Below, piece by piece: positions 2,999-20,120 of a stretch of 25,935 nucleotides of DNA; positions within the stretch are counted from its first letter, which is position 1; every line of letters begins with the position of its first letter. The translations under genes were made by a program, and so were the position numbers. Source of the stretch: a virus (lineage: Duplodnaviria > Heunggongvirae > Uroviricota > Caudoviricetes); IMG/VR virus record IMGVR_UViG_2636415858_000002, positions 1 to 25,935 of that record, one strand, 5' to 3'. The notes below the pieces were generated by a model. The model ran no database searches, was not told where the DNA came from, and saw only the letters and a list, made by a program, of their open reading frames with translations.

Positions 2999-3187
2999 AT
3001 CTTCTCTTATTTTGAAATACAGATTCGTCAGATAAGTCAGAAGCCCCAGAAGCAGACTTCCCAGCACACCAATCGCAGCCCACTGTGATGGACTGACCTG
3101 ATCCAACCACTGCAAAAACCAGTAGCCGGCACTGCCGGCGGAGGTGCCGTAGGCAATGCCCGTTGAAATTTTGTCCATGGATTTCAT
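2999..3187 (-). pseudogene. phage-21-type class II holin (S21/EssD-like), truncated at C-terminus by IS600
   Basis: [63 protein letters not shown]; dual-start M-K-S-M motif; GGAGGTGA RBS; stop codon supplied by the IS600 terminus at 2996..2998. Confidence 0.75.
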
Positions 3188-3348
3188 AGCCTCACCTCCG
3201 CAAATAACGGATGGCGTAGTTTTACACTGAGAAATGAAAGGGATTTGAAAAGAAAAAAACGCAAAAGCGGGCGAAACGATATATACAGTAAGGAAAGCAC
3301 TCTATCCAACAAACCACCCACAGTTAATCGGAATAAAAGCAGAGTGCT

Positions 3349-3420
3349 TATGAATGATCGCACGCCCGAAGGTTAGTATTTCTGCACAGCAATTTTGCAA
3401 AAAAAGGCGATCATTCATAA
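3349..3420. repeat. 14-bp perfect inverted repeat (ttatgaatgatcgc / gcgatcattcataa) with 44-bp spacer
   Basis: Read directly; lies between tRNA-Gly and the holin start. Confidence 0.6.
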
Positions 3421-3479
3421 CTTAAACGTCTTTCAGTCACTCCGGGATTTCCCATCATCGCAGACTGAAAGACTCTGAC

Positions 3480-3554
<75 letters not shown>

Positions 3555-3557
3555 ATA

Positions 3558-3633
<76 letters not shown>

Positions 3634-3635
3634 GC

Positions 3636-3712
3636 TGGCCCACCACCGAGGACTCGAACCTCGCACCGTCAACTTAGAAGGTTGATGCTCTATCCGGATG
3701 AGCTAGTGGTGG
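3636..3712 (-). tRNA. tRNA-Arg (anticodon UCU), atypical C1-G72 acceptor end; phage-type
   Basis: CCACCACTAGCTCATCCGGATAGAGCATCAACCTTCTAAGTTGACGGTGCGAGGTTCGAGTCCTCGGTGGTGGGCCA; anticodon loop CTTCTAA, T-loop TTCGAGT; manual fold only. Confidence 0.55.
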
Positions 3713-3716
3713 TTGG

Positions 3717-3790
3717 TGGCCCTTGCTGGACTTGAACCAGCGACCTGGCGATTATGAGTCGCTCGCTCTGACCAACTGAGCTAAAGGGCC
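3717..3790 (-). tRNA. tRNA with CAU anticodon (Ile2/lysidine-type, ileX-like; elongator Met not excluded)
   Basis: GGCCCTTTAGCTCAGTTGGTCAGAGCGAGCGACTCATAATCGCCAGGTCGCTGGTTCAAGTCCAGCAAGGGCCACCA; resembles E. coli ileX as recalled. Confidence 0.65.
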
Positions 3791-3799
3791 GGAGGCAGA

Positions 3800-3828
3800 A
3801 TAATAACCATATGTCATCACATCTGCAA
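3800..3828 (-). promoter_or_regulatory. sigma70-like promoter candidate for the tRNA cluster (-35 TTGCAG, 17-bp spacer, -10 TATTAT)
   Basis: Motifs read on the minus strand; -10 ends about 9 nt upstream of the first tRNA 5' end. Confidence 0.3.
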
Positions 3829-3877
3829 ACTCATCTGACCACCAGCACGTTTAACGTCCTGTGCCGTTTTTCAGGTA

Positions 3878-3900
3878 TAAAAAAACCCGCATAAAGCGGG
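3878..3900 (-). terminator. intrinsic terminator candidate (stem cccgc/gcggg followed by 7 U on minus strand)
   Basis: Plus strand aaaaaaacccgcataaagcggg; short GC stem with U-tract on the minus strand. Confidence 0.4.
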
Positions 3901-4320: not shown

Positions 4321-5872
<1,552 letters not shown>

Positions 5873-6017
5873 TGGAGCACCTGTGTTGTTCTGAGGTGAG
5901 CATATCACCTCTGTTCAGGTGGCCAAATTCAGTGTGCCACTTCAGGTGCCGAACCTTCCTCCGGATATAATCTGTGATTCCCCAATCAACAGAACCAGAG
6001 GAGGTTCGGCATAAACA

Positions 6018-6440
6018 TCAATGCACAACGACAGAATCGTCGGACGACCCACCACCGCTGAAATGTGCTTTCCGGTAAACGGCCTGAACTGCGTCATCAT
6101 GCGCATCAATTGCCGTACTCAACGCTTCCTGCGCCGCCAGTAATGCACGGCGTTCCAGGGTATCGAAGATACAGAGTCGGTGACGCAGCTCACGCGGAAG
6201 AATTGCCAGAACCGCAGGGATCAGTTTCTGAATTTTCTCCCTTTGCGCTTTCGTTTCACCTTTCAACCAACGGTGATAGATATTCTGCTGATTGTTCCAG
6301 TCCTTGCCTGGTACCAGAGGCAATTCGCCGCCCCCCTGCCGCAGATATTCTTCAGTAATTGCGTTAGCGACCCACGCCTGCCCTTTTTCGGCTGCCAGGG
6401 CTAACAGCACTGATTCGATGTGCTCATGCCTGATTTTCAT
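6018..6440 (-). CDS. ydaT: ydaT-like prophage protein (Rac-type CII-like/toxin-like)
   Basis: 140-aa ORF MKIRHEHIESVLLALAAEKGQAW...; resembles YdaT as recalled (MKIKHEHI... start); overlaps the upstream cro-like gene by 17 nt. Confidence 0.55.
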   Translation of the reverse strand: MKIRHEHIESVLLALAAEKGQAWVANAITEEYLRQGGGELPLVPGKDWNNQQNIYHRWLKGETKAQREKIQKLIPAVLAILPRELRHRLCIFDTLERRALLAAQEALSTAIDAHDDAVQAVYRKAHFSGGGSSDDSVVVH

Positions 6441-6651
6441 GAATCACCTTCCCAGGTCGTTTTGCCTTACGATATTCGTCATAAACTTTGGGGTCGTACT
6501 GAAGTTCCCCGCCAGATGCCTCTTGCAGGCGCATCGCGCGGCCTTCAGGAACCAGTTCCCCCCATGCAGCAATGCTTGCCAGCCTAACTCCTGCGGCATT
6601 GGCAAGCTTTGTTTTGCTGCCAAAAAACGCTATAGCATCAATTTTCAACAT
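6424..6651 (-). CDS. Cro/YdaS-like small HTH regulator
   Basis: 75-aa ORF with HTH-like region KTKLANAAGVRLASIAAWG; AGGAG RBS 6 nt upstream; divergent from the repressor gene. Confidence 0.6.
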   Translation of the reverse strand: MLKIDAIAFFGSKTKLANAAGVRLASIAAWGELVPEGRAMRLQEASGGELQYDPKVYDEYRKAKRPGKVIHENQA

Positions 6652-6658
6652 ATCGAGC

Positions 6659-6678
6659 TCCTTAGATTTTCCTAAGGA
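6659..6678. promoter_or_regulatory. operator-like palindrome tccttag-N6-ctaagga between divergent cro-like and repressor genes
   Basis: Perfect 7-bp inverted arms read directly; sits between the cro-like start (6651) and repressor start (6728). Confidence 0.4.
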
Positions 6679-6727
6679 AACTAGATCGTAGAGAAACCTA
6701 AGTCAAGAAAGATTAGAATTCCCTAAT

Positions 6728-7135
6728 ATGAAAAACGAAACCTTCGGTGCTCGCCTCTTACATAGGCGTAAAAAATTAAAACTGTCTCAGGCCGCATTAG
6801 GTAAGCTGGTCAAAGTGGCTCACGTAACAATTTCTCAATGGGAAAGAGATGAAACACAGCCGGCGGGGAAAAGATTATTCGCACTGAGCCAAGCGCTTCA
6901 GTGCTCACCGACTTGGCTTCTTTTTGGGGATGAAGATAAACAACCAGGCGAACCGATCCCGGATAATCAGCCAGCCATTCTGACAGAAGATCAAAAAGAG
7001 TTACTTCAACTGTTCGACGCACTGCCTGAGTCAGAGCAAAAGGCCCTGTTGTCAGAGATGCGTGCTCGAGTTGAAAATTTCAACAAACTTTTTGAAGAAC
7101 TACTCAAAACTCGCAAAAGAAGCGCAAACAAATAA
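6728..7135 (+). CDS. CI-like prophage repressor (XRE-family HTH N-domain with C-terminal extension)
   Basis: 135-aa ORF; HTH segment LKLSQAALGKLVKVAHVTISQWERDE; no obvious SD, possibly leaderless like lambda cI. Confidence 0.65.
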   Translation: MKNETFGARLLHRRKKLKLSQAALGKLVKVAHVTISQWERDETQPAGKRLFALSQALQCSPTWLLFGDEDKQPGEPIPDNQPAILTEDQKELLQLFDALPESEQKALLSEMRARVENFNKLFEELLKTRKRSANK

Positions 7136-7577: not shown

Positions 7578-8396
7578 TTAAGCAGCCATCTGATGATATT
7601 TTTCCCTGAAGGCTGCCGGGGAGATATTCCCCAGACGAGAGTGACGACGCTGACGATTGTAGAAAATCTCAATGTATTCCCGTATTACTGAGATGGCTTC
7701 ATCCCGGTTATTAAAACGATAGTGGCTCAGGCTCTCATTTTTCAGCGTTCCCCAGAAGCTTTCCATCGGAGCGTTGTCGTAACAGTGACCTTTACGCGAC
7801 ATTGATGTTTTCAGACCAGACTGCTCCTGTATGACCCGGTAATCGTATGCGCAGTACTGTGAACCTCGATCAGAGTGGTGGATTAGCCCGGCAGGTGGGC
7901 GCTGGCTCCTGAGCGCCATAAACAGGGCTTTACCTGTCAGCTCTTTTGTCATGCGCTCTCCCATGGCGTAGCCGACAATTTCGCACGTATAAACATCTTT
8001 GATGCCAGCGAGGTACAACCATCCCTCCTGTGTGGCAACATACGTCAGGTCCGCCACCCAGACCTGATTTGGTGCTGTAGGAGCGAACGTCTGGTTCAGC
8101 AGATTTGGCGCAACTGGCAGATTGTGGTTCGGGTTCGTAGTCGCTCTGAACTTGCGTTTCTGCTTACAGCGTAGCCTTAGCTCCTTACGAAGACGTGCCA
8201 GTCGGTCACGACCAACGATGATGCCATTCTCTGCCAGCTCCGTCTGGAGCCGCCGGGTTCCATATGTTTCGCGAGTGCGGATATGTGCCACCTTAATCTC
8301 CAGTTTTAGCCGCTCATCACTTTGTTTTCTGTCTGAGGGTTCATGCTGTACCCAGTTGTAATAACCGCTCCTGGATACACCAAATACCTGACACAT
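7578..8396 (-). CDS. IS600 OrfB
   Basis: 272-aa DDE transposase frame. Confidence 0.9.
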   Translation of the reverse strand: MCQVFGVSRSGYYNWVQHEPSDRKQSDERLKLEIKVAHIRTRETYGTRRLQTELAENGIIVGRDRLARLRKELRLRCKQKRKFRATTNPNHNLPVAPNLLNQTFAPTAPNQVWVADLTYVATQEGWLYLAGIKDVYTCEIVGYAMGERMTKELTGKALFMALRSQRPPAGLIHHSDRGSQYCAYDYRVIQEQSGLKTSMSRKGHCYDNAPMESFWGTLKNESLSHYRFNNRDEAISVIREYIEIFYNRQRRHSRLGNISPAAFREKYHQMAA

Positions 8397-8431
8397 CGCT
8401 TCAATGGGAAATTGTTGTCGCCATTGTTCGA

Positions 8432-8734
8432 TTAACGCGTATTTTTCAGCGACTCCTGTGCAAAATACGCTGTTGCTTTTTTTAATATATCTCGCTCAAG
8501 GCGAGCTTCATTTAACGCCTTACGCAGTTGCAGAATTTCAGATTCCAGTTCAGCCACCGTGCGGGAACCAGGAGTACCGAGCCCTTTTCTGGCGGCGGTA
8601 ACCCATTGTCCTAAAGTGCCTTCAGGAAGGGATAATCGGGAAGCGCCTTCACTGATCGAAAGTTGATTTTCAAGAACCGTTCTGACAGCTTCGGCTTTGA
8701 ACTCTTTAGAGTAACGTTGGTTTTTTCTGCTCAT
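8432..8734 (-). CDS. IS600 OrfA (100 aa)
   Basis: MSRKNQRYSKEFKAEAVRTVLENQLSISEGASRLSLPEGTLGQW...KKATAYFAQESLKNTR. Confidence 0.9.
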   Translation of the reverse strand: MSRKNQRYSKEFKAEAVRTVLENQLSISEGASRLSLPEGTLGQWVTAARKGLGTPGSRTVAELESEILQLRKALNEARLERDILKKATAYFAQESLKNTR

Positions 8735-8857
8735 TATTAGCTCCTTCTGATGCCATTCTATTTCAGGAAGGAGTGTCCGTTAAACTCAGGCTACCTCAGC
8801 CTGAGGGCAGGTGTAAAACAATAATCAAGCATGGGGTTCATATCCATAGCTCCATTT

Positions 8858-9403
8858 TTATTTTAAGGAAAGCAACTGCTCTACGGTCATGTTTTTAATT
8901 GCGCCCCGGTTTACAAGAGTCCAGCCCTGTTTTTCCAGATAAAACCGGAAAGTCTCCAGGGTACAGACCAGTGCGCCATCAGGAACGGTTTCGGTGAATT
9001 CGACATTGCCGAATTTGTCGAAGTGAACAACCAGAGTGCGACCATCACCCGGAATCATCTTGTCAGCAGGTGGGGTGTTATTCTGGCGCAGTTCGGCCTC
9101 CATGCGGTCGAACTCAGCAATGTAGGCTTCCTTGAATGTGGCGGCTTTTTTGCCCGTGAAGCCCATCACCAGGAAAACGAAGCCGTTTTTGGTGATTTGG
9201 TAGGCGTTATAAGAATTGCCGCGGTGTTCGAATTTAACCCGCGAAAAGTTGCTGGTTAAAAATAGTTCAGAACATTCGAAGGATTCTATTTTTTGAACAA
9301 CATGGTGATGCTGCTTGCCAAAAAACTCAGCAATCGAAATAGAAGTAGTGACGGCGCGACCATTTTCGATGGTTACGTCAGGGTGAGAAAGGGTAGTAGC
9401 CAT
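8858..9403 (-). CDS. rha: Rha-family phage regulatory protein
   Basis: Start MATTLSHPDVTIENGRAVTTSISIAEFFGKQHHHVVQKIESF... with GAGGA RBS; the longer track ORF (to 9697) is an in-frame non-coding extension. Confidence 0.7.
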   Translation of the reverse strand: MATTLSHPDVTIENGRAVTTSISIAEFFGKQHHHVVQKIESFECSELFLTSNFSRVKFEHRGNSYNAYQITKNGFVFLVMGFTGKKAATFKEAYIAEFDRMEAELRQNNTPPADKMIPGDGRTLVVHFDKFGNVEFTETVPDGALVCTLETFRFYLEKQGWTLVNRGAIKNMTVEQLLSLK

Positions 9404-9567
9404 AATGACATCCTCAAGTGATAAGTTAATTAACTCACCAGCAGAGGTGCTAATCTCATGGGTGGTGAGACGCACAGGGTTAGCACTACCGGTCACTCGA
9501 GAACCCGGCCAGCCTTGCGGCTGCCCCGCACGCCTCACCATAATTTGAATGTGGCTGTGCATTACGC

Positions 9568-9592
9568 ATAAAAAAACCGCTTCAGCGCGGTT
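9568..9592 (-). terminator. intrinsic terminator candidate (stem aaccgc/gcggtt, loop 6 nt, 7 U on minus strand)
   Basis: Plus strand ataaaaaaaccgcttcagcgcggtt. Confidence 0.45.
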
Positions 9593-9719
9593 ATGCGCTC
9601 GAGTAACTTTCGGGGTGCTAATCCCGGCACCCGTTTTATGAGGTGCAGGTGCACTATAATTCCACCCGTTCTGGTTTTCAATAGCTACATTCAACATTTT
9701 CTCTTTCCTTTCATCACCG

Positions 9720-9874
9720 AAGTGAATTTTGTGATGCGGTGCCTAGTGCCTCCAGGTGACGTTAACCAGTTAACAATTACAGTCGGCTTTCCCACCCAAA
9801 CCAATAAGGACTAACATGACTTTTAACTGTGCCGCGTGCGCTTAGCCGCATTCACCGCATCACAAAATTCACTT
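9720..9874. repeat. 22-bp perfect inverted repeats (aagtgaattttgtgatgcggtg / caccgcatcacaaaattcactt) flanking a 111-bp core
   Basis: Read directly: left arm 9720..9741, right arm 9853..9874; core contains near-palindrome gttaaccagttaac. Confidence 0.7.
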
Positions 9875-10141
9875 TAAAAAGGGCGGACATCAGCCAGCAA
9901 TTAAACCGATGCCGCCAACTGGTACTTCACACAGCAATGTCGTTATTTACAACCGGAAGCGCACTCCCACCATTTAAATTTCACAGACAAGACCGACTCT
10001 TTATGAATACCGGAAATGCGCCTTCGTGTTGTGCCCGGTTTTATTTCACCACCTCCGGGCTTTGGTGGCCTCGGCTATGAGGTAGCCTGAGTTTAACGGA
10101 CACTCCTTCCTGAAATAGAATGGCATCAGAAGGAGCTAATA

Positions 10142-10444
10142 ATGAGCAGAAAAAACCAACGTTACTCTAAAGAGTTCAAAGCCGAAGCTGTCAGAACGGT
10201 TCTTGAAAATCAACTTTCGATCAGTGAAGGCGCTTCCCGATTATCCCTTCCTGAAGGCACTTTAGGACAATGGGTTACCGCCGCCAGAAAAGGGCTCGGT
10301 ACTCCTGGTTCCCGCACGGTGGCTGAACTGGAATCTGAAATTCTGCAACTGCGTAAGGCGTTAAATGAAGCTCGCCTTGAGCGAGATATATTAAAAAAAG
10401 CAACAGCGTATTTTGCACAGGAGTCGCTGAAAAATACGCGTTAA
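10142..10444 (+). CDS. IS600 OrfA (100 aa)
   Basis: Identical protein to 8432..8734. Confidence 0.9.
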   Translation: MSRKNQRYSKEFKAEAVRTVLENQLSISEGASRLSLPEGTLGQWVTAARKGLGTPGSRTVAELESEILQLRKALNEARLERDILKKATAYFAQESLKNTR

Positions 10445-10479
10445 TCGAACAATGGCGACAACAATTTCCCATTGAAGCG

Positions 10480-11298
10480 ATGTGTCAGGTATTTGGTGTA
10501 TCCAGGAGCGGTTATTACAACTGGGTACAGCATGAACCCTCAGACAGAAAACAAAGTGATGAGCGGCTAAAACTGGAGATTAAGGTGGCACATATCCGCA
10601 CTCGCGAAACATATGGAACCCGGCGGCTCCAGACGGAGCTGGCAGAGAATGGCATCATCGTTGGTCGTGACCGACTGGCACGTCTTCGTAAGGAGCTAAG
10701 GCTACGCTGTAAGCAGAAACGCAAGTTCAGAGCGACTACGAACCCGAACCACAATCTGCCAGTTGCGCCAAATCTGCTGAACCAGACGTTCGCTCCTACA
10801 GCACCAAATCAGGTCTGGGTGGCGGACCTGACGTATGTTGCCACACAGGAGGGATGGTTGTACCTCGCTGGCATCAAAGATGTTTATACGTGCGAAATTG
10901 TCGGCTACGCCATGGGAGAGCGCATGACAAAAGAGCTGACAGGTAAAGCCCTGTTTATGGCGCTCAGGAGCCAGCGCCCACCTGCCGGGCTAATCCACCA
11001 CTCTGATCGAGGTTCACAGTACTGCGCATACGATTACCGGGTCATACAGGAGCAGTCTGGTCTGAAAACATCAATGTCGCGTAAAGGTCACTGTTACGAC
11101 AACGCTCCGATGGAAAGCTTCTGGGGAACGCTGAAAAATGAGAGCCTGAGCCACTATCGTTTTAATAACCGGGATGAAGCCATCTCAGTAATACGGGAAT
11201 ACATTGAGATTTTCTACAATCGTCAGCGTCGTCACTCTCGTCTGGGGAATATCTCCCCGGCAGCCTTCAGGGAAAAATATCATCAGATGGCTGCTTAA
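10480..11298 (+). CDS. IS600 OrfB
   Basis: Identical protein to 7578..8396; frame is -1 relative to orfA across the A7 run at 10393..10399. Confidence 0.9.
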   Translation: MCQVFGVSRSGYYNWVQHEPSDRKQSDERLKLEIKVAHIRTRETYGTRRLQTELAENGIIVGRDRLARLRKELRLRCKQKRKFRATTNPNHNLPVAPNLLNQTFAPTAPNQVWVADLTYVATQEGWLYLAGIKDVYTCEIVGYAMGERMTKELTGKALFMALRSQRPPAGLIHHSDRGSQYCAYDYRVIQEQSGLKTSMSRKGHCYDNAPMESFWGTLKNESLSHYRFNNRDEAISVIREYIEIFYNRQRRHSRLGNISPAAFREKYHQMAA

Positions 11299-11343
11299 AA
11301 AAAGAACAAATGGTAGTGTCCGCTATTGCCAGTACACCTCATG

Positions 11344-11720
11344 ATGGACTGTGTGCAGTTTGTTCCCGATCCGAAAAAACGCAGCATCCGGAGACCGCTT
11401 GTTGAAGAGGATATTGAAGAAATCATTACCCGTCTTAATCTGCGTGCGGAGGTCTTTAAGCTGCATGTGGATTTTTTCGCTACCGTCGTCAGCTAGATAT
11501 CCCCCCGCGTTATCTCGACCCCGACAGACCGTTCGGGGTGGTGGATTACGTTAATGTTCCCCGTACCATTGCGACCGTTATCTCCTCCGGTAAGGCTTCA
11601 AAAGCTGAACTGGATTCTGTCCTTGGTGTGCAGGACTTATGGGATCTGCTGGAAATAATTCATGTGGATGCCCATAACGAACAGGTGATACAGGAGAACA
11701 GAAATGGCGCAGGTACTTGA
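11344..11720 (+). pseudogene. tail assembly chaperone G/GT-type 3' fragment with -1 frameshift site; 5' part removed by IS600
   Basis: Upstream frame ends VDFFATVVS* at 11496; slippery heptamer T TTT TTC at 11472..11478; -1 frame stays open to 11720, overlapping the tape-measure start. Confidence 0.5.
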
Positions 11721-13725
11721 TGAGCTTGTTCTGTCCCTCGGGATTGATGACAGGGACTTTACTGCCGGGGAACAGGCAGTACATGCTGCCCTTAACCGGC
11801 TCACGACGGTGATGGAAGGTGTCGCTGACACATTCAGTCAGGGACAGAAGAAAACCAGTGAATCACTGGAAAAAACCGGAAAAGATGCTGATAAAACGGC
11901 CCGTCGAATGGAAGATGCCGGGAAACGGGCGTCCCGTTTTTTTTCAGGGATCCGTAGCGAGATTCTGGCTCTTGCGGGTGTCAGTCTGACGCTGGGGGGG
12001 CTGAAGAACCTGGTAACAGGTTTTGCCCGTGATCTGAACCGTCTGTCCGTGGAATCCGATGCTTTTGGCATGAAGGCCAGAAATCTGGACGGATGGTTAC
12101 GGGCTGCGCGGGCAAATAATGTTGATGAAGGGGAAATGTCTGGGGCATTTTCCCGGCTTGCAAATGCAAAAGCGGCCTTCAGAGCCGGAAGGTCCTTTGA
12201 TCCTGTGTTACAGGATTTGTTTCAGGTTGCAGCCAGGGCGGGCATTAGTGTTGATTTAAATACTGACAGCACTGAAGCCATCATGCGCAAGCTGGCGGTT
12301 ATTTTTCCGCGACTGACAAAGTCCGAACAAACTGCCTACGGCAACGCGCTGGGCTTCAGTTATGCCGGACAGCAGTTTCTTGGCTCCGGTCATGCGCTGA
12401 AAGATGTGGACGAATTTACTTCCCGTTCGCAGGTTACGCCGGGGCGTACAGCGCTGGCCCGTAAGCTACGAAAAGAGCTTGTTGAGCTCGATCAGACCTG
12501 GTCCGGCATCGGGATGACGATTAGCACCGCGTTGATGCCGTACGCGCTGAAGCTCAGCCACTGGCTGGAGACACTCGGTGACTGGATGCAGCAACATCCG
12601 GAGGAAGTGAACAGGTTTATCACCACATTTCTGAATGACGTTGAGTCAGTGGCCTCCCTGGCGAATAAGGCTGCCGGAGAACTGGGGGGCTGGCAGAATG
12701 TCATTATTACGCTGATCGGGCTGAAAGTGGCGTCATGGGTGCGGGGGCTGACAAAAGCCCTCAGTGGCCCCGGAGGCCTTCTTTTTGCGATAACGGCGCT
12801 TTACCCGGTTGTTGACGGATTACTGACATCCATTGTTGGCAGGGAAAATAAGGACTGGCTGGATTCACATGGTTTTTTCTGGGCTTCAGACGGGACTTTC
12901 TTTTTCAATAAGAAAGAGATGGAGACGTATCAGACAAAACTGGATGTCGGAGAAAAGCCTGGCAACATCACCCGGGCACAATCACCCACAGTATGGCAGC
13001 AGGGCATGCTGGATACTCAGGCTTCTCAGGCAACCGGGAGGGAAGCAGCCTTCGGTGAATCCTGGCTACAGGGTATGCGTGCGACGCAGGAAAAACTCGG
13101 TAATGCCATGCAAAACCGCCAGCGACCGACGAAGACCGGGGAAGCCCTGTTAGGCTGGCTGCAACCGAAACTGTCTCAACTGGAGGAAAAATATAACCTG
13201 CCGCCCGGACTGCTGCGCAGCGTTGCGATCACCGAATCCCGTGGTAATCAGTTTGCCGTCTCACCTGCTGGTGCGATGGGACTGTTTCAGTTCATGCCGA
13301 AGACGGCCAGTGAATTTGGTCTGAGGGGGAACGATGCCTTTGATCCCGAAAAAGCCGCTGATGCCGCCGCGAGAAAACTTGGTGGCCTGATACGTTTTTT
13401 TCATGGCGATCTGGCTAAGGCTCTGGCGGCATATAACTGGGGAGAGGGAAATGTTCAGCGTAAGGGACTGGCTGCTGCTCCGGAGGAGACCCGCAACTAT
13501 ATTCCGCGGGTGCTGGCGAACCTGCCTTATCCGGGTGCGGCAATGGCCATACGGTCGCTCCATCCTGCGCCTGTATCGCAGTCCACCGTAACGGAAACCA
13601 CGCATATCGGGACACTGAATGTCACCACAACGTCGGACAATGTGAAGGGTATTACCGATGACGCACGTCGGCGTATCACGAATTCGGCGCTTGTGTCGGT
13701 TTATTCCAGCGGGGTAACAGGATGA
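11704..13725 (+). CDS. tail tape-measure-like protein with C-terminal lytic transglycosylase (SLT) domain
   Basis: 673 aa; AGGAGA RBS; SLT motifs ITESRGNQFAVSPAGAMGLFQFMP and AAYNWGEGN; position directly after chaperone frameshift site. Confidence 0.7.
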   Translation: MAQVLDELVLSLGIDDRDFTAGEQAVHAALNRLTTVMEGVADTFSQGQKKTSESLEKTGKDADKTARRMEDAGKRASRFFSGIRSEILALAGVSLTLGGLKNLVTGFARDLNRLSVESDAFGMKARNLDGWLRAARANNVDEGEMSGAFSRLANAKAAFRAGRSFDPVLQDLFQVAARAGISVDLNTDSTEAIMRKLAVIFPRLTKSEQTAYGNALGFSYAGQQFLGSGHALKDVDEFTSRSQVTPGRTALARKLRKELVELDQTWSGIGMTISTALMPYALKLSHWLETLGDWMQQHPEEVNRFITTFLNDVESVASLANKAAGELGGWQNVIITLIGLKVASWVRGLTKALSGPGGLLFAITALYPVVDGLLTSIVGRENKDWLDSHGFFWASDGTFFFNKKEMETYQTKLDVGEKPGNITRAQSPTVWQQGMLDTQASQATGREAAFGESWLQGMRATQEKLGNAMQNRQRPTKTGEALLGWLQPKLSQLEEKYNLPPGLLRSVAITESRGNQFAVSPAGAMGLFQFMPKTASEFGLRGNDAFDPEKAADAAARKLGGLIRFFHGDLAKALAAYNWGEGNVQRKGLAAAPEETRNYIPRVLANLPYPGAAMAIRSLHPAPVSQSTVTETTHIGTLNVTTTSDNVKGITDDARRRITNSALVSVYSSGVTG

Positions 13726-14432
13726 GTTTTTCTTTCGATAATATTTCCCTGAATAACTTTTCGCTCAGTGAAAGTAACGTACTGAGTGCAGTTCGTGGCG
13801 GCGGTGTCCTGGGACTCATTAATAGTGTACTGGCACCGTCATTCGGTATTTATTACGCACGGAATGATCCGGCAGGTGCCCATCAGAAGGGTGGCAAACC
13901 TTTCTCCCCGGATTCTTTTGTTGTCGTTGAGGTGGGCGCGGAGGCTTCTGTTTCCACCGTCCCCGTGGAGCAGGGGGCTTATACCACCTTTAATAAAATC
14001 CAGAGATCGCCGGAACTGCATGTGACTTTCATTGTAGAGGGGTGGACGGCCTTTTCCGGATCCGTCCCGAACCTGACAAATTTTTCCACCACCTCGCGGA
14101 CGAATGTGCTGGAAACGCTTGAAAGGATGCGTACCACGGCAGGACTCTACGATATTGAGACGCCGGACAAGACATGGACATCCTGCGACCTTGTGAAATA
14201 TGACTACCGAATGCGAAGTAATAATGGTCCGACCTTACTGACGGTTACTGCGGTATTTCAGACCGTAATGAATACAGGAGAGGTGTCAGTGGGAAGTACG
14301 GATAAGTCGTCTCCCACGGACAACGATAAAGCAAAAGGGGCCGCATCGGTTAAAACGCAGCCAGTTACGGCGTCGGTGACACAACCGTCAGACGCTGACA
14401 GACGAAGTGCCACGAACAGGGGGATCACCTGA
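13722..14432 (+). CDS. phage tail protein, function unassigned
   Basis: 236-aa ORF; ATGA overlap with the tape-measure stop; no family recognised. Confidence 0.5.
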
Positions 14433-14734
14433 TGCTGGAAATTGTTTTATCTCCCGTTAAAGCCCAGCAGTTTACGGTGACACTGGGCGCTCAGGTCTGC
14501 ACCATTCGCCTGAATCAGCGTACTACGGGGATGTATATCGATATCATTGTTAATGGTGAACCGTGCCTGTATGGCGTGCTGTGTCTGAATAATAACCGGA
14601 TTGTCCGGTACGGATACCTGCCGTTTCAGGGGGACCTGTTTTTTACCGACACGGAGGGGAATAGTGACCCTGACTGGCGGGGGCTCGGATCCCGGTACCG
14701 GCTCTACTGGCTGTTACCTGAGGAACTGATATGA
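14432..14734 (+). CDS. phage tail protein, function unassigned
   Basis: 100-aa ORF; TGATG overlap with the upstream gene; no family recognised. Confidence 0.45.
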
Positions 14735-14841
14735 GCTACAGACAACGTAAAATAAGTAAGCGTAAACTGACCGCCGTATGTAGCCATTAAGCCTGTATTG
14801 GTAACGTAGGTGCCCACCTTTTCAACTAGTGGACACCTGTT

Positions 14842-15261
14842 ATGGAACAGAAAGCATTATCTGCAGAACCCCGCAGATCATTTTCAAATGAGTTTAAACT
14901 TCAAATGGTTAAACTGGCTTCACAACCAGGAGCCTCTGTTGCCCGTATTGCCCGGGAACACGATATCAATGATAACCTGCTGTTCAAATGGCTCAGGCTC
15001 TGGCAGAACGAAGGGCGCATATCGCGGCGTCTTCCGGTAACAACCTCTTCTGACACTGGCGTTGAATTATTACCTGTGGAGATAACGCCGGATGAGCCGA
15101 AAGAACCTGTGGCTGCTCTTACTTCGTCTTTATCTACTCAGACTACAGTTAGTGCCAGCTCCTGCAAGGTGGAGTTCCGTCACGGTAACATGACGCTGGA
15201 AAATCCTTCACCAGAGCTGCTCACAGTGTTGATCCGTGAACTGACCGGGAGGGGACGATGA
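14842..15261 (+). CDS. IS66-family Orf1 (HTH accessory protein)
   Basis: 139-aa ORF, first of the three-gene IS66 arrangement. Confidence 0.7.
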   Translation: MEQKALSAEPRRSFSNEFKLQMVKLASQPGASVARIAREHDINDNLLFKWLRLWQNEGRISRRLPVTTSSDTGVELLPVEITPDEPKEPVAALTSSLSTQTTVSASSCKVEFRHGNMTLENPSPELLTVLIRELTGRGR

Positions 15262-18329: not shown

Positions 18330-18420
18330 CTGTACTCCAATGACTAGTCTAAAAACTAGTATTAAGACTATCACTTATTTAAGTGATACTGGTTGTCTGG
18401 AGATTCAGGGGGCCAGTCTA

Positions 18421-18746
18421 ATCAGGCACCGTTTTACAACGGAAAATCGGATACCCGGACTGTTGACCTGTCTGATGCTGTATACCGGCGGCTGATACTG
18501 ATGAAAGCCATGTCGAACATTACTGACTGTTCCGTTCCGGATATTAACCGGATGCTGAGATTTATGTTCGGAAAAAAACGGCGAGCTTATGTTCTGAATA
18601 ATGGTGGGCTGAGGATGAGTTACATCTTTGAGTCCGCGCTCTCGTTGGCAGAACTGGCGATTATCCAGTCGTCGGGTGCACTGCCGTCCCCGCCGGGTGT
18701 TTATGTTTCAGTAGTTTTAAAGGAGTCCCGTAATGAAGGCCAGTGA
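18421..18746 (+). pseudogene. phage baseplate-type protein (P2 gpI-like position), 3' fragment; 5' part lost at the IS2 junction
   Basis: Frame continuous from the IS2 end to a stop overlapping the tail-fibre ATG (TAATG); assignment by position only. Confidence 0.35.
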
Positions 18747-20118
18747 TAAACCCCGCCAGCTGGCGGTCCCCTTTGCGAGTACCGGAGATAAAAACCGTAT
18801 CCCGGACAAGGCGACACAGCAGACCAGAGAGAGCGGTAATGCTGCGTATGATTCAGGTTTTCCTCCGGTGACCATGACAGCGGTCTCAGCGGGAGGTATA
18901 CCGCCACACGGCAAGGATTTTAACGGTCTGATGTACGATATTACCGCAGCAATACGGTTCGCCCAGGCTGGCGGTTTGTACACGTATAATGCCGGTTTTG
19001 CGGGGGCCATTGGTGGATATGCAAAAGGAGCCATTCTCGCCGGAGTCGCAACAACAGCGGTCTGGCTGAATACCACAGACGATAACCTGACCGATCCTGA
19101 AGGCTCCGACAGTGCGGGCTGGGTAAATCTTCTTGAGGATCCGAAAAGGATATTCCTGCGGCAGAAGAACAATCTGTCAGACCTTCAGAATAAAGGGACG
19201 GTACGGGATAATCTTCAGGTTTACAGTAAAGAGCAGTCAGATCAACGCTATGTTCATCGGGAAGGCGATAAAATAACCGGAGAGCTGAAAATCCGTGGTG
19301 TTAATGCGCTGAGGATTTTCAACGAAGCTTTTGGCCTGATTTTTCGTCGTTCGGAAGAGTGCCTGCACCTTATTCCCACCAGTGAAGGTCAGGGGGAAAA
19401 TGGCGATATTGGTCCCCTGCGCCCGTTCACCATTAATTTGCGGACGGGTGAAATATCCATGTCGCATAAAGTGTCTGTTGGCGGTGGTTCGCAGGTCAAT
19501 GGTGCGCTGGGTATCGGCGTTCAGAACGCCCTGGGGGGGAATTCAATTGTTCTTGGTGATAATGACACCGGATTTAAACAGAATGGAGACGGTATTCTGG
19601 ATGTTTATGCTAATAGTCAGCGTGTATTCCGCTTTCAGAATGGAGTGGCTATTGCTTTTAAGAATATTCAGGCCGGAACTGCCAGAAAATTCACGTTATC
19701 CAGCGCCAACAACTCCACGAAAAATGCAGCGTTTTATTTGTGGGGTAATCCATCCAGGTCTGTTGTTGCAGAGCTTGGCGATGATTCAGGCTGGCATTTT
19801 TTCAGCCAGAGGAATACAGATAACAGCATCACGTTCGCCGTAAACGGACAGGTAATTCCGTTAAATTACGGAAACTTCGATGCCCGCTATAAACATCGAA
19901 CTGAGGGGGTACAGGATGTGCGGTATGGTTATGAAATGTATTACAACCCTGGCAGCAACACCGTTTCATGGACGTTTCGCTCACCTTCGGGACACGGGTT
20001 GTCAGGGATATCGATATCGGATACCGGCCGTAACTCAGCGGATAACGTCAACGGTGTGTATTACCGACCGCTGCAAAAACTGATTAATGGCATCTGGTAT
20101 AACGTAGCGAGTATTTAA
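18733..20118 (+). CDS. tail fibre protein with P2 gpH-like C-terminal domain
   Basis: 461 aa; C-terminal region [51 protein letters not shown]...[11 protein letters not shown] resembles the P2 H C-terminus as recalled. Confidence 0.7.
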
Positions 20119-20120
20119 CA

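Follow-up and report, generated by a model that had tools for sequence, protein, structure and literature searches.

The 673-amino-acid protein encoded at positions 11704-13725 (+ strand) of the 25,935-nucleotide window, the whole stretch of DNA analyzed here, which derives from Shigella boydii ATCC 9210, is very probably an ordinary tape measure protein (TMP) with a lytic transglycosylase (SLT) domain, inherited from a temperate phage with a short contractile tail of the Pam3/Pbunavirus/Gofduovirus type. In the ancestral phage, this tail type was combined with early and lysis genes of lambdoid kind. In S. boydii, the gene is an intact relic within a prophage wrecked by insertion sequence (IS) elements. 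The features of the window are as follows.

10142..11298, + strand: IS600 coding region (100-aa and 272-aa open reading frames (ORFs)); named from the RefSeq name on the flank matches, 'IS3-like element IS600 family transposase'
11341..11496, + strand: 3' remnant of a tail assembly chaperone gene, 51 codons plus stop; colinear with 20001-20156 of the intact relative (L001)
11472..11478, + strand: slippery heptamer T TTT TTC in the chaperone zero frame, predicted site of a -1 programmed frameshift (G/GT-type)
11472..11720, + strand: -1 frame extension of the chaperone, 82 codons; contains a 60-aa ORF at 11538-11720
11704..13725, + strand: very probable tape measure protein, 673 aa, with a lytic transglycosylase domain in its C-terminal part; PHROG 2013, synteny, and helical model
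13180..13497, + strand: SLT domain (family 1/GH23-type), aa 493-598; Pfam PF01464, T7 gp16 alignment, and Foldseek
13234-13236, + strand: codon of the putative catalytic Glu511; aligned to T7 gp16 E37
13531..13722, + strand: conserved C-terminal tail of the same protein, aa 610-673; many invariant columns past the SLT domain in the homologue alignment
13722..14432, + strand: tube initiator (Dit-like baseplate protein), 236 aa; fold comparison and position directly after the tape measure gene
14432..14734, + strand: baseplate plug protein, 100 aa; Pfam Pam3_gp18 PF22479
14842..17231, + strand: IS66-family element (ORFs of 139, 116, and 530 aa); Pfam TnpB_IS66 and DDE_Tnp_IS66 on identical genes of a related locus (L005)

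Domain architecture of the 673-aa protein

The ORF opens with an ATG and encodes the product given in the preliminary description. Minus-strand ORFs within the gene (e.g., 13261-13605, 114 aa) were rejected as spurious, since a plus-strand ORF with a full-length family match covers the region. That match is to PHROG 2013, "lytic tail protein" (E 2.6e-245), a family for which no experimental work was found. Two PHROGs annotated as "tail length tape measure protein", 2276 (E 1.7e-29) and 9570 (E 6.6e-20), match the N-terminal 460-600 residues. The tape measure models of Pfam and NCBIfam gave no match to the protein, its N-terminal part included, and the NCBIfam search returned SLT enzymes only, all of them sub-threshold.

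Pfam placed SLT (PF01464) at aa 493-598, spanning positions 6-115 of the 117-position model, with a score of 90.2 bits (E 8.8e-26). Because the gathering cut-off is 21.3, this match lies far beyond chance. All three family-1 motifs that had been quoted from the C-terminal part were found there, namely AITESRGNQ (containing E511 and S512), GLFQFMP (beginning at G526), and AYNWGEGN (beginning at A576); the SLT domain proposed earlier is confirmed. The motifs align column for column with TESR, GMMQF, and AYNQGEG of T7 gp16, placing E511 opposite gp16 E37. Among 19 homologues, E511, S512, G526, Q529, A576, Y577, N578, W579, and G580 are invariant. The modelled SLT domain (AlphaFold2, local pLDDT ~65-88) was matched by Foldseek, each time with a probability of 1.0, to Slt, MltD, MltE, MltC, and T7 gp16, which share a goose-type-lysozyme-like fold.

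Residues 1 to ~470 are almost entirely helical according to DSSP on the AlphaFold2 model, whose pLDDT is low over this stretch and whose confidence is low except in aa 112-250 and the SLT domain. Kyte-Doolittle hydropathy peaks lie at residues ~86-105, 331-349, and 357-378. Both results, the model with its low confidence, agree with the helical and hydrophobic N-terminal part proposed earlier. Homologues span 630 to 740 aa and differ by repeat-like indels near residue 63 and in a variable middle section. The PE067 homologue retains the N-terminal scaffold and carries Phage_lysozyme2 where SLT would be; the TMP scaffold therefore accepts different wall-cutting modules.

Position of the gene in the tail module

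The tail genes of the intact relative, a nearly complete prophage of enteroinvasive Escherichia coli (EIEC) CFSAN029787 (NZ_CP011416.1, ~520.9-550 kb), run in the order sheath, tube, chaperone, 673-aa gene, tube initiator, plug, hub, spike, wedge, and fibre, and the 673-aa gene is the sole long gene between the tube/chaperone genes and the baseplate. Edno5 and PE067 have the same tail gene order, which is also the order reported for the myophage Pam3. A near-identity DNA search against cultured phages returned matches to the IS flanks only, and no phage with this tail module; relatives such as Edno5 and PE067 came from a search at the protein level.

The gene directly upstream of the tape measure gene in L001 encodes a chaperone of 134 aa, and in the window its 5' side has been cut off by IS600. 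The remnant retains the T TTT TTC heptamer five codons ahead of its stop codon, and from there the -1 frame is open to 11720, stopping 17 nt within the tape measure gene. The heptamer and the open -1 frame are also found in L001, Edno5, and PE067, and the site is conserved in 47 of 51 related IMG/VR loci. A G/GT-type -1 frameshift upstream is a mark of tape measure genes and is specific to tape measure chaperones. Pfam yielded nothing for the 134-aa chaperone or for a 118-aa protein of the intact relative, and NCBIfam held no family for the chaperone or for the putative sheath-initiator protein.

Downstream, the 673-aa gene and the 236-aa ORF share 4 nt, and the 236-aa and 100-aa ORFs share 1 nt, in keeping with the coupling noticed in the preliminary description. 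That account had recognized no family for either, and here both could be named. The 100-aa protein matches Pam3_gp18 (PF22479; aa 1-94 on model positions 1-99 of 101) with 80.2 bits (E 1.7e-22) against a gathering cut-off of 24.2, and shows weak sequence matches to Pa193 gp34 and E217 gp33, making it the baseplate plug. The 236-aa protein is the tube initiator, identified by fold comparison only: it has a tube-like beta-barrel fold of the Pam3 gp17/Pfam Dit_like type and comes next after the tape measure. No solved structure was matched to it by sequence, whether a single sequence or a 19-sequence profile was used, and NCBIfam has no family for either downstream protein. The TMP gene and the genes for the 236-aa and 100-aa proteins stay together in 48 of 52 IMG/VR loci, and the three belong to the Pam3/Pbunavirus-type minimal baseplate lineage.

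A different reading of the 673-aa protein is that the virion carries it as a tail-associated lysin or ejection protein, comparable to T7 gp16 or to a Tal protein of the baseplate, with some other factor measuring the tail. By sequence, its best match among solved structures is indeed T7 gp16, an internal core protein, and the PHROG 2013 label says lytic tail protein rather than tape measure; PHROGs also lists matches named 'internal virion protein with endolysin domain', and the curated tape measure models of Pfam and NCBIfam are silent, as noted above. The likeness to gp16 is, however, limited to the SLT module (aa 502-607), while the two tape measure PHROGs align to the long N-terminal part. 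Furthermore, the intact prophage offers no other long gene between tube and baseplate that could serve as the ruler, and the upstream frameshift is of the kind specific to tape measure chaperones. We therefore regard a lysin or ejection protein as quite improbable. The tape-measure-like nature suggested in the preliminary description is thus upheld by the PHROG matches, the position between tube/chaperone and baseplate in the EIEC relative, and the frameshift site. Its remark that 673 aa is short for such a protein was not confirmed; this length is normal for short-tailed myophages (Edno5, 585 aa; Pa193, 858 aa).

A relic in a wrecked prophage

Only four fragments of the intact prophage are left in the window. 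The sheath, tube, hub, and spike genes, most of the wedge genes, and all head genes have been lost, owing to IS600, IS66-family, and IS2-like elements. The tail module lost its upstream part to the insertion of IS600, and homology to the intact prophage begins at 11341. Downstream of the plug gene, the IS66-family element stands in place of the hub, spike, and wedge genes; homology ends at 14755 and restarts at 18416. With the sheath, tube, hub, spike, and head genes gone, no virion can be built in S. boydii, and the proposed tape measure role is therefore that of the ancestral phage and not of the present-day locus.

Could the host instead have co-opted the gene, using its transglycosylase, e.g., to remodel the wall around a machine that spans the envelope? 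Secretion systems are known to be assisted by dedicated SLT enzymes, and the ORF is intact even though IS elements removed neighbours on both sides. Moreover, many Shigella assemblies carry the exact 673-aa sequence in intact form (189 index blocks in an exact-sequence look-up, which is blind to broken copies), and these copies could hint at retention. Against this, the protein carries no signal peptide, its N-terminus (MAQVLDELVLSLGIDDRDF) being acidic, and thus, unless a virion delivers it, lacks an obvious way into the periplasm. Scanning 11200-14900 for promoters gave no candidate ahead of the gene, from IS600 to the start codon; the two sites that the scan did report, at 13714 and 14726, are not above shuffle expectation. 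Differences from the EIEC copy are mostly nonsynonymous (5 of the 8 nucleotide differences; 3 of the 4 substitutions alter the protein) and include R619L, at a nearly invariant column of the homologue alignment. In other strains, truncated versions occur, namely P0041, which ends before the SLT domain, and a 157-aa product in a further locus (L002). The two baseplate genes that follow are just as intact, a pattern better explained by recent decay than by selection acting on a single gene. Co-option accordingly strikes us as hardly credible, and we give just as little credence to the wider proposal that Shigella has kept the tape measure and the two intact baseplate genes together for a host function, such as a wall-remodelling enzyme released on lysis or driven by IS600 read-through.

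Selection on the gene in Shigella was also considered directly and set aside: only 8 differences separate the gene from the EIEC copy, too few to give the test any power, and the 5 nonsynonymous ones point to drift. Within 11200-14900, 12 terminator-like hairpins were counted against 4.0 expected, the excess being mostly on the minus strand.

Proposed assembly and infection in the ancestral phage

Read as the tape measure of a short contractile tail, the protein invites comparison with several characterized systems. One of them is Pa193 gp41, a Pbunavirus TMP (PDB 9B45) whose SLT domain is similarly placed (aa 465-579 versus 463-580 in the 673-aa protein, E 6e-10). Cryo-EM has located gp41 in the tail lumen, with its C-terminus anchored on the tail tip and hub. 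In the Pa193 baseplate, gp34 is homologous to the 100-aa protein, and there are ripcord/tube-initiator proteins similar to the 236-aa protein. Pa193 differs in being a virulent phage with a tail of ~130 nm, and gp41, at 858 aa, extends ~280 residues past its SLT domain as compared to ~65 here, with no sequence similarity detected beyond the SLT module. The tail module of the cyanophage Pam3 (gp13-gp24; PDB 7YFZ) shares the gene order, but its host, head genes, and lifestyle differ from those of the Shigella/EIEC prophage; the solved chains that matched do not include the Pam3 TMP.

The 'lytic tail protein' of the Edwardsiella phages Edno5/GF-2 (Gofduovirus) is a full-length homologue with 28% identity and an SLT domain (E 8.5e-27), and it occupies the equivalent position behind an upstream frameshift. 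Virions of these phages are myoviruses with tails of 74.5-81.6 nm. The Edno5 homologue is the shorter of the two proteins, and in Edno5 an immunity cassette (mnt/arc/ant) is inserted between the tape measure and tube initiator genes. T7 gp16 offers a parallel for the enzyme, as its N-terminal lytic transglycosylase is virion-borne and ejected into the periplasm, with the catalytic Glu37 aligning with Glu511; gp16 is nonetheless a 1318-aa podovirus internal core protein and not a tail ruler, and has no similarity past the SLT module. An experimental precedent comes from the mycobacteriophage TM4, where a muralytic motif within the tape measure gp17 is dispensable for viability and improves infection of stationary-phase cells, although TM4, a siphovirus, infects mycobacteria and has a motif (motif 3) that differs from SLT.

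By analogy with these relatives, the chaperone and its -1 frameshift product would hold the long, helical protein during tail assembly in the ancestral phage. The last 60 residues or so of the TMP, its conserved C-terminal tail (aa 610-673), are proposed to dock on the hub-spike complex, as the C-terminus of Pa193 gp41 suggests, and the tube initiator together with six plug subunits would complete the inner baseplate. The tube would then polymerize around the TMP up to its N-terminal end, giving a tail of perhaps ~85-100 nm. Edno5 (585 aa, 74.5 nm) and Pa193 (858 aa, ~130 nm) correspond to 1.3-1.5 Å per residue, a relation based on two relatives only and on EM tail lengths from the literature. 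During infection, sheath contraction would push tube and spike across the outer membrane, with the TMP being expelled into the periplasm. There, the SLT domain, with Glu511 as its catalytic residue, may cut MurNAc-GlcNAc bonds locally and open the peptidoglycan, and the hydrophobic segments (~86-105 and 331-378) may help to form a path for the DNA across the inner membrane.

A tape measure bearing an SLT domain is already known and ordinary, wall-cutting domains within tape measures being well documented, with TM4 and Pa193 among the examples. The finding has little importance beyond correct annotation. RefSeq labels the protein as a lytic transglycosylase domain protein, and one source calls a truncated copy a tape measure; what is gained is a clean functional label for each of three genes whose annotation is usually vague: tape measure, tube initiator, and baseplate plug. 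The tail module is that of a phage carrying an ipaH effector gene, nearly intact in EIEC and wrecked by IS elements in S. boydii, and this context lends the locus some interest for the evolution of Shigella.

Transglycosylase domain and tape-measure identity

The following genes of the window are considered:
11341-11496: 3' remnant of the gene for a 134-aa tail chaperone
11704-13725 (+): 673-aa gene, ATG start
13722-14432 (+): 236-aa gene
14432-14734 (+): 100-aa gene

All three family-1 SLT motifs quoted in the preliminary description are present in the 673-aa protein, and Pfam places an SLT domain (PF01464) at residues 493-598 with a score of 90.2 bits (E 8.8e-26; gathering cut-off 21.3). In an alignment with T7 gp16 the motifs fall on its lytic transglycosylase module, and Glu511 stands opposite Glu37 of gp16, reportedly identified as the catalytic residue by Moak and Molineux. 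E511, S512, Q529, Y577 and N578 are invariant in 19 aligned homologues (50-91% identity). Position 513 is Arg here and Gly in most homologues, and is not a mark of inactivation because T7 gp16 has Arg there too. An AlphaFold2 model built on a 19-sequence alignment (mean pLDDT 52.6) is nearly all helix to about residue 470 and is confident only at residues 112-250 and in the SLT domain, which matches the solved structures of Slt, MltD, MltE, MltC and T7 gp16. This low-pLDDT helical model and hydropathy peaks at ~86-105, 331-349 and 357-378 agree with the hydrophobic N-terminal part described earlier.

The initial interpretation, a tape-measure-like protein with a lytic transglycosylase domain, is right in its core. 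PHROG 2013 ('lytic tail protein') matches the protein end to end (E 2.6e-245), the tape-measure PHROGs 2276 and 9570 match its N-terminal 460-600 residues, and in the nearly intact prophage of the enteroinvasive E. coli (EIEC) strain CFSAN029787 its gene is the sole long one from tube to baseplate. Upstream, a slippery heptamer, T TTT TTC (11472-11478), lies in the correct register 5 codons ahead of the preceding gene's stop, and the -1 frame is open for 82 codons from the heptamer, ending 17 nt within the 673-aa gene. Judged by sequence, this arrangement is a predicted G/GT-type tail chaperone frameshift signal; such frameshifts precede tape-measure genes, as Xu et al. reportedly described in 2004. 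It is found in 47 of 51 related IMG/VR loci, and the heptamer is T TTT TTC in the EIEC prophage, A AAT TTC and T TTT TTA in Edwardsiella phage Edno5, and G GGT TTT in Burkholderia phage PE067.

The SLT module also matches that of Pa193 gp41 (E 6e-10). A cryo-EM structure places the C-terminus of gp41 inside the tail lumen, attached to the tail tip, and its authors noted a putative transglycosylase domain in the protein (PMC11456595). The closest characterised case is gp41, a protein of the same kind from the same baseplate lineage. Its length is different, as is the extent of the C-terminal region beyond the SLT domain, and a search for similarity outside the SLT module detected none. The PE067 homologue (5001-6869 of locus L011) has its N-terminal 349 residues in common with the 673-aa protein (E 6e-18), and its SLT position is taken by Phage_lysozyme2 (E 3.6e-28); the helical scaffold therefore accepts exchangeable wall-cutting modules. 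The PE067 record annotates this tape measure as N-acetylglucosaminidase, and its structural neighbours are clearly misnamed ('cobalamin biosynthesis protein', 'RNA polymerase', 'oxidoreductase').

Although 673 aa had been considered short for a tape measure, it is not so for this phage class. The Edno5 homologue has 585 aa and the tail 74.5 nm (PMC6372524), and the 858-aa Pa193 tape measure accompanies a tail of ~130 nm. These values correspond to 1.3-1.5 Å per residue, so that 673 aa would predict a tail of ~85-100 nm for the ancestral phage; tails measure 81.6 nm in the relative GF-2 and ~84 nm in Pam3 (PMC9942802). Salmonella and Serratia homologues are 630 to 740 aa long, differing by repeat-like indels that follow residue 63 and by a stretch at ~350-470 that is hypervariable, and the SLT domain and last 60 residues are strongly conserved, a pattern of variation that is that of tape measures. 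At aa ~63 (columns 60-115 of homologue alignment A2), Salmonella proteins hold up to ~50 additional residues in KTG-x-DADK-x-A...E-x-AG-x-RTG repeats that are absent from the Shigella/EIEC protein; these insertions are repeat-driven length variation within the ruler part.

Tape measures that carry wall-cutting domains are well documented, and the finding is real and ordinary. RefSeq already lists this very protein as 'lytic transglycosylase domain-containing protein', and in one source a truncated copy bears the name 'putative phage tail tape measure protein'.

Gene order and the two downstream genes

Positions 1704-23725 of the window are identical base for base to a stretch of CP011511.1, listed as Shigella boydii ATCC 9210 (PMC6456863). 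The 673-aa, 236-aa and 100-aa genes occur in nine complete E. coli genomes at 99.7-99.8% identity, and one of these, EIEC CFSAN029787, still has almost the whole prophage around them.

Gene order of the EIEC CFSAN029787 prophage
1. Lambdoid early and lysis genes; terminase, portal and head genes; neck terminator
2. Sheath (DUF3383, 494 aa)
3. Tube (148 aa, Pfam E217_Gp32)
4. 134-aa gene, then 60-aa ORF
5. 673-aa, 236-aa and 100-aa genes
6. Hub (Pfam E217_GP41), then spike
7. 118-aa gene
8. Baseplate J, DUF2612, fibre and fibre assembly protein, ipaH

This tail order is that reported for the minimal myophage Pam3, namely gp13 sheath, gp14 tube, tape measure, gp17 tube initiator, gp18 plug, gp19 hub, gp20 spike, gp21 sheath initiator, gp22-23 wedge and gp24 fibre (PMC9942802). 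By position as in Pam3, the 118-aa gene is a putative sheath initiator.

Both downstream ORFs, for which no family had been recognised, can be placed. The 100-aa protein belongs clearly to Pfam Pam3_gp18 (E 1.7e-22), the baseplate plug family, and has weak matches to the equivalent baseplate adapters Pa193 gp34 and E217 gp33. The 236-aa protein is identified as the tube initiator by its gene position and by its fold matches, among them tube initiators and related proteins of the baseplate from Bas63, A-1(L), PhiTE, P1 and pyocin R2. Of 52 related IMG/VR loci, 48 retain the trio of tape-measure, 236-aa and 100-aa genes. In Edno5, an mnt/arc/ant immunity cassette lies between the tape-measure and tube-initiator genes (L010 9037-10454), a mid-tail-operon position unusual for a regulatory module.

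State of the prophage locus

All that is left of the intact prophage in the window is four fragments: 3000-3890 (inverted), 11341-14755, 18416-20729 and 23828-24903. The truncated chaperone gene borders directly on IS600 at ~11340. After 14755 the genes for hub, spike, sheath initiator and wedge have given way to an IS66-family element, which lies beside a putative IS2-like element. The window contains no sheath or tube gene and none of the head genes, and the locus can no longer yield a virion. Over 3415 bases there are 8 nucleotide differences from the EIEC copy, 5 of them nonsynonymous, and one change, R619L, falls at a nearly invariant column; in other strains the tape measure is truncated to 482 aa (homologue P0041) and the 236-aa gene to 157 aa (locus L002). 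Because of these substitutions and truncations, the most fitting view of the 673-aa gene is that of a relic stranded recently. Retention for a host function is argued against by the lack of a signal peptide in the protein and of any promoter-like site from IS600 to the start codon in a scan of 11200-14900. That scan also returned 12 terminator-like hairpins (4.0 +/- 2.1 expected from shuffles), 9 of them on the minus strand within coding sequence, an excess that is probably a composition effect.

A Rha/Ash regulator gene (8858-9697, -) is flanked by two inverted IS600 copies (7578-11298) and is oppositely oriented in three other genomes with an identical tape measure (L002-L004, compared with L005), which looks like an IS600-mediated inversion polymorphic among strains. 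Another IS600 copy (20977-22132, -) appears to interrupt a tail fibre gene (20690-23944), leaving a 96-aa ORF (20690-20980) with the start of Pfam phage_tail_N and a 598-aa ORF (22148-23944) with its end (model positions 81-131) and DUF4376. Within fragment 3000-3890, an inverted match to the intact prophage at 95.5% identity, four clustered tRNA genes (3480-3790, -; Gly-TCC, Thr-TGT, Arg-TCT and one CAT anticodon) lie beside a holin gene remnant; RefSeq calls the corresponding EIEC genes Ile, Arg, Thr and Val, so two calls differ, between tools or between copies.

A 603-aa ORF (24124-25935, -) reaches the window's 3' end, and 23828-24903 matches a region of the EIEC prophage (L001 29418-31181) annotated by RefSeq as ipaHa, a T3SS effector E3 ubiquitin ligase. 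Strain CFSAN029787 carries ipaHa as cargo immediately past the fibre genes of this lambdoid, myovirus-tailed and almost intact prophage, and the distant relative Edno5 also has an LRR-ligase-like gene according to its authors (PMC6372524). Effectors of this kind may repeatedly have travelled with this tail lineage.

Proposed role in the ancestral phage

Domain identity, catalytic motif, helical character, gene order and frameshift signal are observed here, and characterised relatives suggest how the ancestral tail would have worked. Chaperones would hold the tape measure through assembly, its conserved C-terminus would dock on hub and spike, as in Pa193, and the tube would grow around it, starting at the initiator. 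Sheath contraction would then expel the tape measure into the periplasm, where the SLT domain would locally open the peptidoglycan, and the hydrophobic segments would aid DNA passage across the inner membrane. Experimental precedent comes from TM4, in whose tape measure the muralytic motif is dispensable for viability but improves infection of stationary-phase cells (PMC1796659).
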